A stretch of DNA of 46,606 nt from Promethearchaeota archaeon (lineage in GTDB: Archaea; Asgardarchaeota; Lokiarchaeia; Sigyniarchaeales; SOKP01). Positions 9,623-19,138 of this stretch are shown in pieces; position 1 is the first letter of the stretch, and every line of letters begins with the position of its first letter. The stretch lies in the NCBI GenBank assembly GCA_016839705.1, contig JAEOTR010000033.1:1-46606 (forward strand), read 5' to 3'. The translations under genes were made by a program, and so were the position numbers. The notes under the pieces were generated by a model, which was not told where the DNA came from, did not search any database, and saw nothing but the letters and a program-made list of their open reading frames with translations.

Positions 9623-10282
9623 TTATAAAGCAAGTAACATTAGAAGCCATCCAATCATAAGGATTATTCCGCCAAAACCTAACACAGGATACCCTGCTGC
9701 AAATGGGGAGACAAATGTATAGATTACAAATGCAATTATTAAAACACTCCACCAACCAAAGGGTATTTTAATATCTACTAAATCTAGTACAAGTATCAAA
9801 AGAATAATTGCTAAAATTAGACCAAAAATTGCATTTACAAGGATAATTTCAGCACCAGCAGTAAATCCTATGAAAATTGCGACACAATCCCAGAGAGCGA
9901 AAGCAATGCCGAATAAAAGCATAACTTTCGAACCATTCATATCTTTCTTACCCCTAACTAAATCTACTATTACCGCTAACAACACTAAAATAGCTGTAAA
10001 ATAATTTCCCCCTGCTAAATAATTGAAGATGATTAAAACAATACCGATGATAAGCATTAACCACCACCAGTACGTTAGTTTCACCGGGCCTAAACTAACA
10101 AGGTCTAATGATATAAAAATTAAGAATACAAATACTAGACCAATAATCCCGTAAAGAATCATCATAGCATCAATTGCAGCAACATAGAAATAACCCATCG
10201 CTTCAGCGAATATAAATAGCATCGCTATAAAAAGGGTTATTTTTGGAGCGGTAATTTCTTTACTCATACTTTCTTCACTCAT
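9623..10282 (-). CDS. Polytopic membrane protein of unknown function with internal duplication
   Basis: About 8 hydrophobic segments. Repeated motif 'GI.GL...L...LDLV...K..(Y/F).WW..LII' in both halves. Confidence 0.8.
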   Translation of the reverse strand: MSEESMSKEITAPKITLFIAMLFIFAEAMGYFYVAAIDAMMILYGIIGLVFVFLIFISLDLVSLGPVKLTYWWWLMLIIGIVLIIFNYLAGGNYFTAILVLLAVIVDLVRGKKDMNGSKVMLLFGIAFALWDCVAIFIGFTAGAEIILVNAIFGLILAIILLILVLDLVDIKIPFGWWSVLIIAFVIYTFVSPFAAGYPVLGFGGIILMIGWLLMLLAL

Positions 10283-10456
10283 ATCAGTTCACTACTTTTT
10301 TCTATTTTGTTATACTTGAATTGTTAATTCAATTCAATATTTACTTAGATAGCTAACTATATAAAATTTTAGAAATCTTTTAATATATTATTAATAGGTT
10401 TTAACTCTAAAGAGAAAAGACAATAAAAATTAGATTTTGTAATAAAATATTCATTG

Positions 10457-10523
10457 CCGAAGCCATTACACTATGGTTTGTCATCTTGCGACTAGTATTT
10501 TCTCACAAGATTCATCCCTTCGG
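10457..10523 (-). promoter_or_regulatory. SECIS element (eukaryote-like/lokiarchaeal type) in the 3' UTR of hdrA-mvhD
   Basis: Minus-strand RNA: CCGAAG GG AUGA AUCUUGUGA GAAAAUACUAG UCGCAAGAU GA CAAA CCAU AGUGUA AUGG CUUCGG. It has an AUGA/GA tandem sheared G.A core, a 9-bp upper helix, an AAAA-containing apical loop and a closing helix CCGAAG/CUUCGG. It starts 2 nt after the mvhD stop. Confidence 0.88.
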
Positions 10524-10524
10524 T

Positions 10525-10995
10525 TTATTTTTTCTTCTTATCCTCTGAGGCTCTTTTTTCTTGCTCAGATTTTAAATTTTCTTTAATAAGATTACTCCCT
10601 AAATCTGCGATTTCTTCTGATATTCTTATTGCTTCATTTTGGAACTTCTGACCTTCAGCAGCACTACAATTAAAAATCTGGACTCTTTCTGGTGAAATTC
10701 CAGTCGTTTTTAAAATCTCCTTGACATATTGTACGTTTCTTTCGGCAACTAAATTACCTGTTTCATAATCGCATTCTCCACGATATCAAGCCCCAAGAAC
10801 AACTCCATCAGCACCTTTTCCTATTGCTCGCATTATTAAAGAGGGGGTTACTCGTCCTGTACAGTTAATCCTCACTGGTCTAAATGTTGCAGGATATTGT
10901 GCTCGAATTGTGCCTGCCATATCTCCTGCACCGTATCCTCATTTCCAGCAAAGGAAAGCTAATATCTTTATATTCTCTACTGATTTGTTAGCCAT
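10525..10995 (-). CDS. mvhD: Hydrogenase iron-sulfur subunit MvhD/VhuD, selenoprotein with 2 Sec (156 aa); absent from the ORF track
   Basis: Manual translation: MANKSVENIKILAFLCWK-U-GYGAGDMAGTIRAQYP..RINCTGRV...GADGVVLGA-U-YRGECDYETGNL...ISPERV..FNCSAAEGQKF. TGA at 10939-10941 and 10786-10788 fall at conserved Cys positions. SD-like AAGGGGG upstream; stop TAA at 10525-10527. Confidence 0.95.
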
Positions 10996-11008
10996 TTTTT
11001 ATCCCCCT

Positions 11009-12991
11009 TTATAATTCTTCCAAGATTGCATCTATTTGTTTTTCATATTGAGGTTCTCTATAATACCTTAACGTGATTGCTTCTGATGGGCAATTTGCTA
11101 AACATGATCCACATCCCCTGCAAAGGATTTCATTCACTTCAGCACCATCATCCTGTACACTTATCGCATTATACGGACAATTCAGTTCACACAACCCACA
11201 TTTTGCACATTTTTCTTTGTCTTCAACAGCCGCCCGAATTAAGAGTATTCGATATTTATCTTTACCCATTAACCTGGCTAATGAAGATGCTGCAGCTCTT
11301 CCTTGAGCAATCGACTCTACAATTGATTTTGGTCCTTGACTTGCTCCAGCTAATGTGATTCCGGGAATTTTTGTATCGATCGGATTCAATCTAGCATGAA
11401 ATTCCTTAAAAAAGCCATCTTGACTCAATTCAAGTTTTAGGATTTTTTGGATGCTTTCAACACCTTTCGCCGGCACCATCGAAGCAGAGAGAACAACCAT
11501 ATCATATTCCAATTCCTTTAATCCACTTGAGCTCAATGTATTCTGCATAACAATCTTTAGGTTCTGAGTATCTGGATCTTCTTTTATCCTACTAATATTC
11601 GTTCTTATATATTTTATACCTTCCTTTCTAGAAGCTGTAAAATATTCTTCATAATCTTTTCCCGCAGCTCGCATATCCATGTAAGCAACCGTAATATCCG
11701 CATTAGGTGAGTGTTGTTTTATTAATTTTGAGTTTTTGATTGAAATCATGCAACATACTCCTGAGCTACAATAGGTATTCATTGTTAAATCTCTCGATCC
11801 TACACACTGGATAAATAGAATATTTTTTGGTACTTTACCATCAGAGGGTCGAACAAGGTGCCCGAGGGTAGGTCCATTTGGTGCAAGAATTCTTTCAAGT
11901 TTTAATTGTGTAATTACATTAGGATATTTATTGTATCCTAAGTATCCAGTAGGAGGTTCAAATTCATCCCAACCAGTTGCAACAACAATGGACCCTACTT
12001 TCAATTTTAGGATTTCATCTTTTTGATCAAAATCGATTGCATCTACTTCACATGCCGTCTTACAGAGCTCACATTTTATGCATCTATCCATGTCAATTTG
12101 AGCAAAAGCAGGAACAGCTTGTGCAAATGACGAATAAATAGCTTTTCTTGAATCTAATCCTTCATTGAATTCATTGTAACCATAAGCCGGGCATACTTCC
12201 CAACAGGCTCCACAACCGTTACAATCTTTATTTACATATCTCGCTTTTTTTCGAATGGTTACCGTAAAATTTCCTACAAATCCTTGTACATCTTCTACTT
12301 GACTATAAGTATATAAGTTAAGCCCTGGTGTTCTAGCTGATTGAAGCATAACGGGTCCTAATATTCATATACTGCAATCATCTGTAGGGAAAGTACGATC
12401 TAATTTTGCCATTTTGCCTCCTATTGTAGGTTGTGTCTCTACTAGATGTACTTCGAATCCTTCTTCTGCTAAGTCGATCCCTGCTGACAAACCTGCAACT
12501 CCTCCACCGATAATCAGAGCTTTTTTTGTTATATCAACTTCTTTGATTTGTATTATCTCTAACACCGCGGCTCTTGCTACGGCTGAACGAATGGCATCTT
12601 CAGCAACTCTTCGAGCACCCTCCATATCTTGTTTATGTACAAAACTTGAATGCTCACGTATATTAGCAAACTCTAAATATGATGCATCGATATTCATTGA
12701 TTCAAGTACGCTTTTAAAGACAGGTTCATGAGTTTTAGGAGTACACGAACCAACTACAAGTCTGTTCGCATTACTTTCAATCATCTTTTCTTTTATAAAT
12801 TCCGCTCCAGGTTCTGTTCATAAACTGATATAATCTAATGCCTCGACTACATTTGGAATAGTTTTTGAGAATTCTGCCAATTTTTTAGTGGCGATGATTT
12901 CTGCTATGTTTAAACCTCACTGACAAATAAATACAGCGATTCTTGGAACTTTTTCGTCGTCTTGAATAGTTTTTTCTTTAGTTTCTACCAT
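11009..12991 (-). CDS. hdrA: Heterodisulfide reductase subunit A, selenoprotein with 3 Sec (660 aa); split into fragments in the ORF track
   Basis: One frame from ATG 12991: RIAVFICQ-U-GLNI (TGA 12917-12919; cf. CHCG.NI), YISL-U-TEPG (12818-12820; cf. YMCSDPG), TFPTDDCSI-U-ILGP (12365-12367; cf. CSxCIL). Also FAD motif IIGGGVAG, QCVGSRD and two CxxCxxCxxxCP ferredoxin domains. Confidence 0.96.
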
Positions 12992-17713: not shown

Positions 17714-19138
17714 ATGGCGATATTAAGACCTAGGATTAACGTATTGGATGAAGAACACAAAGAACAAATATTAGAGGAAGCAAAAATTATATTAGAGACC
17801 CAAGGTATTTTCATTGAAAATCAAGAAGCGGTTGAATTATTTGATCAAAAAGGTTTAAATCATGAAGGTTTGCGGTATTTTTTTCCCCCAGATTTGATCA
17901 ATAAGTGCTTAGCTTCAGTCCCTTATGAAATCACTCTTTTCGATAGAGAGGGAAATGAATGTATTACATTAAAAGACAATGACGTTCATTTTGATCCTGG
18001 TTCCGCAGCCATTTTTATTCTTGATGAAAATACCAGAGAAATAAGAGAGGGCTTGTCAAAAGATTTTATCCGGTTCTCCAAAATCGTTGAACAATTAAAA
18101 TTTATTGAAGCACAAAGTACAGCTCTAATTTATCAAGATGTACCGAAAGAAGCTCAAGATTGGCATCGCCTATATTTAGCACTATCTAATTGTTATAAAC
18201 CGATAGTTACAGGAACATTTCGTAAAGAGAGTTTTTCTATTATGAAAGAAATTTTGCTAGCATGTAGAACATCAGAAGAGGATTTAGCTCGAAAACCACT
18301 GGCAATATTTGATGCTTGTCCTAGCCCTCCATTAAAATGGTCTGATCTTACAACACAATCACTTATTGATGCTGCAAAATCCATGATACCATCTGAATTT
18401 GTATCTATGCCATTAGCAGGGGCGAGTGCTCCAATTACTTTAATTGGCTCAATTACCCAACACTGTGCCGAGTGTCTTGCGGGAATTGTTATTGCTCAAT
18501 TAGCAAAAGAGGGTGCTCCATTAATTTGGGGAGGCTCTCCTGCGGTGTTTGATATGAAACATGGGACAACTCCAATGGGTGCAATTGAAACAATGATGAT
18601 TAACTTAGGAGATGTTGAGATGGGAAAATTTTTAAATCTCCCTACTCATGCCTATATGAGTTTAAGCGATTCTAAAATACCAGATGCTCAAGCGGGGTTT
18701 GAAGCAGGAATGGGAGCATTACTTGCAGGACTTGCGGGAGTTAATATGGTTTCTGGACCAGGGATGCTTGATTTTGAGTCTACTCAAAGTGTTGAAAAAC
18801 TAATAATTGATAATGAAATAGTAGGAATGGTAAAAAGATTAATTCGCGGTATTGAAGATTTTGGTACTCCTTTTGCTTCAGAAATATTGAAAGATTATGA
18901 AGATAAAGAAGAATTATTATCCCATCCATCAACTCTTAAATATTTTAGAAAGGAATTATTTCTTCCTAGTCAAATTATAGATAGAATGACAAGAGATTCA
19001 TGGAAGGAAAATGGTTCTAAATCAACAAGAAAAAGAGCATTAGATGTTGCTGAAAAGTTGTTACAAAAGCCTTCAATTAAACCTATTGATGGAAGCTTAG
19101 CGACAGAATTGGATAAGATTGCTGAAACGGCATTATAA
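17714..19138 (+). CDS. Trimethylamine methyltransferase (MttB) superfamily protein, non-pyrrolysine
   Basis: Motifs SPPLKW, MPLAGASAPITL.G, FDMKHG, SDSKIPDAQAGFE, GMLD, LIIDNEI. No in-frame TAG; TTA (Leu, 18662-18664) sits at the Pyl-equivalent position before SDSK. Confidence 0.93.
   Translation: MAILRPRINVLDEEHKEQILEEAKIILETQGIFIENQEAVELFDQKGLNHEGLRYFFPPDLINKCLASVPYEITLFDREGNECITLKDNDVHFDPGSAAIFILDENTREIREGLSKDFIRFSKIVEQLKFIEAQSTALIYQDVPKEAQDWHRLYLALSNCYKPIVTGTFRKESFSIMKEILLACRTSEEDLARKPLAIFDACPSPPLKWSDLTTQSLIDAAKSMIPSEFVSMPLAGASAPITLIGSITQHCAECLAGIVIAQLAKEGAPLIWGGSPAVFDMKHGTTPMGAIETMMINLGDVEMGKFLNLPTHAYMSLSDSKIPDAQAGFEAGMGALLAGLAGVNMVSGPGMLDFESTQSVEKLIIDNEIVGMVKRLIRGIEDFGTPFASEILKDYEDKEELLSHPSTLKYFRKELFLPSQIIDRMTRDSWKENGSKSTRKRALDVAEKLLQKPSIKPIDGSLATELDKIAETAL

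Follow-up and report, generated by a model that had tools for sequence, protein, structure and literature searches.

The question raised by this locus is whether an extra hairpin beside a SECIS core belongs to the signal or only neighbors it. The element lies on the minus strand of the window, the 46,606-nucleotide stretch of archaeal DNA that was analyzed as a whole, directly behind the selenoprotein genes hdrA and mvhD. Asgard SECIS elements are the main evidence that the eukaryotic selenocysteine (Sec) system grew out of an archaeal one, and their recognition factor is a puzzle because SBP2 is missing. Our reading is that the element is the single SECIS of the hdrA–mvhD pair, that it belongs to the lokiSECIS class, and that it is a compact three-way junction of helices P1, P2, and P3 in which the third arm, P3, is an integral working part. 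We put the probability of this reading at about 80%.

The two genes are separated by 13 nt on the same strand (−). Pfam searches identify the hdrA product as an HdrA-type Fe-S flavoprotein with Fer4 clusters and FAD/NAD(P) domains, and the mvhD product as FlpD/MvhD (PF02662, E = 5.8e-41). The third UGA of hdrA encodes residue 209 and corresponds to the canonical HdrA Sec position of Mariotti 2016 (PMC4989117). The five UGA codons of the pair are located 273 to 2404 nt upstream of the AUGA of the SECIS. In four metatranscriptome libraries of one sediment study, contigs are identical to stretches of hdrA and mvhD within 10792–12409, and they leave 10100–10726, including the SECIS, uncovered. One 317-nt contig crosses the hdrA–mvhD junction (10864–11180), and contigs of this kind are no proof of a single transcript.

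Table 1 Features of the hdrA–mvhD locus and of its SECIS in the window.
Feature	Coordinates	Strand	Details
hdrA selenoprotein gene	11009..12991	−	660 codons; frame open with TGA = U; stop TAA 11011-11009
hdrA in-frame UGA (Sec) codons, n = 3	12919-12917, 12820-12818, 12367-12365	−	From the translation
mvhD/vhuD selenoprotein gene	10525..10995	−	156 codons; frame open with TGA = U; stop TAA 10527-10525
mvhD in-frame UGA (Sec) codons, n = 2	10941-10939, 10788-10786	−	From the translation
P1 5' strand, closing (lower) helix, CCGAAG	10518..10523	−	MFE fold; pairs with CUUCGG
Bulged kink-turn strand	10512..10517	−	G10517 (−1b):C10480; bulge G10516-A10515-U10514; AUGA at 10515-10512
G10513 and A10512, sheared G•A/A•G pairs with A10481 and G10482		−	Kink-turn signature in the sequence
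P2 5' strand, 9-bp upper stem, AUCUUGUGA	10503..10511	−	MFE fold; zero mismatches
Apical loop, 11 nt, GAAAAUACUAG	10492..10502	−	A-rich start, AG end
P2 3' strand, upper stem, UCGCAAGAU	10483..10491	−	Pairs with AUCUUGUGA
G10482 and A10481 (2n and 1n of the kink-turn), then C10480 (−1n)	10480..10482	−	C10480 pairs with G10517
AAA linker from kink-turn to third arm	10477..10479	−	Sole single-stranded junction strand; from the sequence
P3 third arm, CCAU 10476-10473 / AGUGUA 10472-10467 / AUGG 10466-10463	10463..10476	−	Loop holds G-U-A
P1 3' strand, closing helix, CUUCGG	10457..10462	−	MFE fold

On the minus strand, 10523 to 10457 form an AUGA/GA core with a stem of 9 bp and an A-rich loop of 11 nt; a side hairpin of 4 bp and a closing helix of 6 bp complete the fold, which starts 2 nt past the mvhD TAA stop. 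The initial annotation had listed these parts from the letters alone, and sequence inspection with RNAfold found each of them exactly at its stated position on the minus strand. The third arm adjoins the closing helix with 0 nt between them. Folding of 10535–10440 by RNAfold, a check that the annotation had proposed, returned the predicted three-way junction as both the MFE and the centroid structure at −19.7 kcal/mol. With a z-score of −2.31, the fold is equaled by 3 of 200 dinucleotide shuffles. These single-copy statistics give modest support alone, and the case for more than chance is comparative. U-rich runs follow the element at the 3' end of the operon. In the window copy the apical loop (UACU) could form a kissing interaction with the arm loop (AGUG); the idea was rejected because, on inspection by eye, the nearest orthologues do not retain it.

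The window element is a member of the published lokiSECIS class. The text of Mariotti 2016 (PMC4989117) describes lokiSECIS by an AUGA directly before a stem of 9 bp, a loop of 11 nt with an A-rich start and a terminal AG, and a GA or AA 3' of the stem, and it places one lokiSECIS behind vhuD that is common to the hdrA-vhuD pair. The window copy agrees with the published HdrA-VhuD element in the position of AUGA and GA, the stem and loop lengths, the loop composition, and the site behind the vhuD stop codon. Several UGA codons over ~2.4 kb per element are found in both, and the element itself is no different. Together with the FlpD match, these features bear out the proposal that a SECIS with a eukaryote-type AUGA/GA core stands behind mvhD. 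Rfam returned no family over the SECIS interval (10300–10700) at E values up to 10 and no SECIS match at the gathering score anywhere in the window, which is consistent with the remark in the text of Mariotti 2016 that lokiSECIS is missed by standard SECIS tools. A covariance model finds the element as its sole match in the 46.6-kb window.

The same class appears in Huang, Xiao and Zhang (2024, PMC11227280) as the Asgard type I "eSECIS-like" structure; the model in the text of that paper covers core, upper stem, and loop, and the remainder is called an "internal loop and lower stem". The third arm, the flush closing helix, the G-Y-R (G-pyrimidine-purine) arm loop, and the −1b:−1n pair described below are unmentioned in the main texts of Mariotti 2016 and Huang 2024, whose figures or supplements may draw the arm. 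They are likewise unmentioned in the main texts of Sun 2021 and a 2026 review (PMC13188914), and the main texts of papers that contain both "SECIS" and "three-way junction" make no mention of the third arm. The element is a refinement of a known signal and no new kind. To the published record the window contributes one more well-documented copy, the pair counts of the kink-turn C-stem, and evidence against a connection of the arm with multi-UGA decoding.

Three samples that were independent of the arm were inspected for it: mvhD orthologues, a core-only scan of the genome to which the window belongs, and other Asgard families. The arm and closing helix are present at the same place in all 30 orthologous mvhD loci that were collected by a protein search for mvhD. 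The orthologues form two clades. The window-like clade has the closing helix CCGAA/UUCGG and the arm CCAU/AUGG; clade B (L014–L030) has the closing helix AUGUGUU/AACACAU and the arm AUGG/CCAU, so that all four arm pairs are swapped. Within the closest mvhD orthologues alone, we did not detect arm covariation and found one-sided changes only. Alignment by MAFFT across the two clades was off by ~12 columns and was replaced by covariance-model alignment combined with an anchored parse. The window's genome also contains a second mvhD (G000:C3:1962-2387 (−)) that has two TGA codons, is 58% identical to the window mvhD, and is of the clade-B type. The SECIS in the ~120-nt region downstream of this gene has the closing helix AUGUGUU/ACACACAU and the arm AUGG/CCAU, again with all four pairs swapped.

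The core-only scan of the window's genome identified five real SECIS elements, behind the window mvhD, the second mvhD-type gene, selD, a gene for a small CxxU protein, and a gene for a UU-dipeptide protein. Arm and closing helix are present on each of the five, and the scan returned no armless SECIS. The same three helices, built from other sequences, follow the TGA-containing mvhD or selD of eight more Asgard families (f2, f7, f13, f16, f19, f30, f31, and f32), which brings the families in which the arm was seen to nine with the window's own. The arm is the rule in each examined Asgard family that has a Sec-type (in-frame TGA) mvhD or selD. Two elements, L128 and L161, had been candidates for a SECIS without an upper stem and were withdrawn when the model alignment revealed ordinary three-armed elements with a 5' half that overlaps the end of the ORF. 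In L128 (family f30), the UAG stop lies within the upper stem, the core reads AGGA, and the SECIS overlaps the ORF end. The L161 SECIS (f13) overlaps its ORF end as well, and in the f7 selD elements (L229–L232) the UGA stop is part of a GUGA core.

A covariance model (R1) that was built from close mvhD orthologues with the arm included gave ~140 full-length matches, with hits in each of the 25 genomes sampled from the window's family. Gene families with an armed element include mvhD, the UU-dipeptide proteins, Prx/Trx-like and hdrA-like proteins, selD, and small membrane proteins, and lokiSECIS elements with the arm are found behind at least seven unrelated gene families. The initial annotation had called the structure a SECIS variant; it is not one peculiar to this gene, given its presence on each of the genome's five SECIS elements and across these gene and Asgard families. 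The annotation had also tentatively linked the arm to multi-UGA decoding. That link is unsupported because single-Sec genes, namely selD, the small CxxU protein, and the small membrane proteins, carry the same arm.

Pairing statistics were derived from the 83 distinct elements of an 84-match alignment, which was collected with and fitted to the arm-containing model and so leans towards structure. The P3 arm is 89.4% paired with double changes in five of five pairs, the five modeled pairs of the P1 closing helix are 84.5% paired with double changes in all five, and the P2 upper stem is 92.9% paired with double changes in nine of nine. In the control, with partners slid by 1–3 columns, 33–55% of the cells pair. 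RNAalifold, run unaided, recovered P1, P2, and the two core pairs of P3. The three-way topology is present in 52 of 81 constrained MFE folds compared to 7% with shuffled flanks, and the thermodynamic optimum differs from the three-way junction in about one-third of the elements. A strict structural descriptor was satisfied by 58 of the 84 elements compared to 6.3% of shuffled flanks. A loose descriptor was dropped as a test because 57% of shuffled flanks satisfy it. The extra hairpin and closing helix of the initial annotation thus form a conserved, covarying three-way junction (83 elements, 30 of 30 mvhD orthologues).

The dimensions of the junction and the sequence of its loops are also constrained. 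The arm loop has G-Y in 80 of 81 elements compared to 46% in shuffles; counted by column, G occurs in 79/80, Y in 80/80, and R in 67/80. Arm and P1 are directly adjacent (0 nt) in 51 of 81 elements, and 66 of 81 have at most 1 nt between them. The linker from GA to the arm measures 1–4 nt in 74 of the 81 parsed elements. The upper stem has 9 bp in 78 of 84 relatives, and the apical loop has 11 nt in 72 of 84. Within that loop the three central A's are kept in 83, 82, and 83 of 83 elements, and the final G is kept in 82 of 83.

The core, as far as sequence can tell, is the signature of a standard kink-turn. The elements have a 3-nt bulge of the form R-A-U (N-A-U in its loosest form) followed by G•A and A•G, and column counts show that AUGA and the G and A positions of the kink-turn are near-invariant. 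The nucleotide two 5' of AUGA and the one directly after GA form the −1b:−1n pair in 98% of 119 distinct elements (G:C 96, U:A 12, A:U 5, wobble 4). The same pair in alignment A5 is GC in 77, AU in 4, and other in 1, and it is C:G in the f7 selD elements. The −2b:−2n pair is formed in 74% of elements by four pair types. The initial annotation had set a three-way junction here against the simple internal loop of eukaryotic SECIS elements. The branching stands; the loop is not loose, and the G10517:C10480 pair leaves a standard 3-nt kink-turn bulge. Standard kink-turns (Kt-7, box C/D) likewise consist of a C-stem, a 3-nt bulge, G•A/A•G pairs, and an NC stem, with a −1b:−1n pair that is mostly G:C. 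In contrast, the Asgard C-stem has just 1–3 bp (one pair in the window copy) and opens directly into the three-way junction.

This arrangement resembles the k-junction of DUF-3268 RNA and TPP riboswitches (Li et al. 2023, PMC10573300), and the first alternative to our reading is that the element is one. The arm would then sit on the non-bulged strand of an RNA that folds by itself in metal ions, it would block L7Ae-type proteins, and EFSec would read the RNA directly. The topology matches the definition, in that tandem G•A pairs are accompanied by an extra helix on the n strand that is attached through connecting nucleotides. The residue that follows GA forms a pair with the loop-proximal nucleotide of the bulged strand, as in the c1:L1 pair of the k-junction, where the first connecting nucleotide does the same. 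The arm adjoins P1 in most elements, which would allow a coaxial stack like that between the T and C helices, where the third helix is stackable on the C-side helix. The L7Ae of A. fulgidus does not fold k-junctions (PMC10573300), and a k-junction that blocks L7Ae would fit the missing SBP2. However, most Asgard elements have one or two more antiparallel C-stem pairs, usually giving a regular C-stem of 2–3 bp before the junction, which points to a standard kink-turn beside the junction that L7Ae could bind. In addition, the linker is 1–4 nt and not two. The Asgard element also differs from the known k-junctions in its function, translational recoding. A standard kink-turn beside a junction and a k-junction would fit the topology equally well, and on the balance of these points we consider the full k-junction account doubtful.

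A second alternative is that the arm and closing helix are a general 3'-end structure for transcript stability or termination that stands beside the SECIS and has no part in Sec decoding. The position of the element at the operon 3' end, the U-rich runs that follow, and the fact that P1 encloses the entire SECIS are consistent with this idea. It is nevertheless very unlikely. The arm keeps a fixed spacing to both the GA core and P1, the G-Y-R loop is kept behind unrelated genes, and the arm is retained where the 5' half of the SECIS overlaps a coding region or stop codon; moreover, the arm was seen on SECIS elements only, with no armless SECIS in the core-only genome scan. The idea that the side hairpin arose by chance or is neutral, without selected structure, could appeal to an arm of only 4 bp, to the window copy's z-score of just −2.3, and to the frequency with which shuffled flanks satisfy the loose descriptor, and it is hardly credible against double compensatory changes in each pair among 83 elements, a paralogue with all pairs swapped, an invariant arm loop motif, and an arm in nine Asgard families.

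SECIS elements of other lineages share some features with the Asgard element and differ in others. Eukaryotic type I SECIS elements likewise have an AUGA...GA kink-turn core, unpaired A's in the apical loop, and a 3' UTR site, and they likewise act at a distance on several UGA codons. Their stem is longer than the 9-bp upper stem of lokiSECIS, according to the text of Mariotti 2016 (PMC4989117). The eukaryotic element has a plain, unbranched internal loop and works with SBP2, whereas the Asgard element has a branched junction with an arm and no SBP2. Methanogen-type archaeal SECIS elements share the 3' UTR site and an archaeal-type EFSec. In contrast, the window element is without their GAA_A bulge and G-C clamps; direct reading of 10535–10440 found no GAA_A bulge between G-C clamps. 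The Methanococcales vhuD elements have, in the text of Mariotti 2016, AUGA and GAC/AAC flanking an extra stem.

A compact three-way junction with a working arm, the preferred reading, suggests how the element may operate. It presumably directs Sec insertion at the five UGA codons. P1 is the closing helix that begins just past the stop codon, P2 is a predicted canonical kink-turn continued by the 9-bp stem and the A-rich 11-nt loop, and P3 is a short third arm with a G-Y-R loop, set flush on P1 so that coaxial stacking of P1 and P3 is possible. We infer that the signal includes the arm as an integral working part. By stacking on the closing helix, the arm may hold the kink-turn in its geometry. 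The 3b:3n pair of the window copy is a Watson-Crick A-U, and according to Lilley's rule as given by McPhee et al. (PMC4382518), metal ions alone do not fold a kink-turn with this type of pair. Alternatively or additionally, the invariant arm loop may offer the recognition factor a second contact that is sequence-specific. The initial annotation had suggested that the arm could be a protein docking site. If the three-armed junction is the working unit, searches and models of the core, stem, and loop alone are incomplete, and constructs for functional tests should carry the arm and the closing helix. If the arm is read in a sequence-specific manner, its invariant loop gives a way to search for the archaeal recognition factor.

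Candidates for this factor are the archaeal-type EFSec and the two L7Ae-family proteins of the genome. SBP2 is not reported from these archaea in the parts of the literature that were consulted. The window's genome has only two genes with the L7Ae domain (PF01248), presumably the usual pair of L7Ae and L30e. In size and domain composition the EFSec of this genome is ordinary for archaea (472 aa; GTP_EFTU, D2, and aSelB_III), and Pfam detected no added known domain in it. The lack of SBP2, the two L7Ae-domain genes, and the ordinary EFSec suggest that EFSec or a general kink-turn protein could be the RNA reader. The EFSec gene (G000:C16, L198 5006-6899 (−)) is followed after 4 nt on the same strand by a gene for a 156-aa Roadblock/LC7-domain protein, and this pairing occurs in seven of seven EFSec loci of the window's family. 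A Roadblock gene beside EFSec was not found in families f7, f8, f13, f16, and f19. The Roadblock protein was rejected as a general partner of EFSec because it is syntenic within the window's own family only. A search for EFSec relatives by peptide patterns yielded four loci only.

These considerations can be extended to a tentative evolutionary scheme, possible but speculative, in which the pre-eukaryotic SECIS was a kink-turn three-way junction with an arm whose G-Y-R loop was read by archaeal EFSec, with or without L7Ae/L30e, instead of SBP2, and in which eukaryotes lost the arm once SBP2 arose. If the arm is such an EFSec-read determinant, the minimal lokiSECIS hairpin as published falls short of the functional unit, and this could partly explain a failed heterologous test. 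In the sole published functional test, the Loki vhuU.2 element was inactive in Methanococcus maripaludis (PMC11881835). The construct was "adapted from" Mariotti and had a predicted energy of −6.9 kcal/mol (PMC11881835), and it appears to have been a bare hairpin without the arm and closing helix.

Several additional features were observed. Within the window, the Rfam family PYLIS_3 (mttB pyrrolysine insertion sequence) matches 18662–18761 (+) with 50.2 bits, above the gathering score, inside the mttB-like ORF 17714–19138. This ORF is open under table 11 and has no in-frame TAG, and the match is probably coding homology in a non-Pyl MttB-family gene and no working PYLIS. The aIF2-gamma gene of the window's genome (G000:C97, L192 1150-2736 (+)) has an N-terminal extension of ~110 aa that consists of a helix-hairpin-helix-like part, with weak matches to the RadA and L32e N-terminal models, and a lysine-rich linker. 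A second, weaker match to the SECIS model (22 bits, E = 0.007) lies at L009 2902-2977 (+), ~900 nt downstream of the mvhD SECIS there, and may belong to a neighboring selenoprotein gene. One contig carries two SECIS matches at a distance of 1.8 kb, G000:C73:87264-87336 (+) and 89113-89184 (+) (L034, L036). The first of these follows a protein with a Sec-Sec dipeptide (…HADUUADV…), and nine relatives of this protein have the same kind of element. In the window's family, short ORFs of ~65–145 aa precede many three-armed SECIS elements (L057, L059, L076, L082, L088, L099, L104, L125, and L126). Each has a single hydrophobic stretch and, near the C terminus, a glycine-rich run with Sec at its end (GGGU, GGU, PSU), and they may form a family of small membrane selenoproteins.
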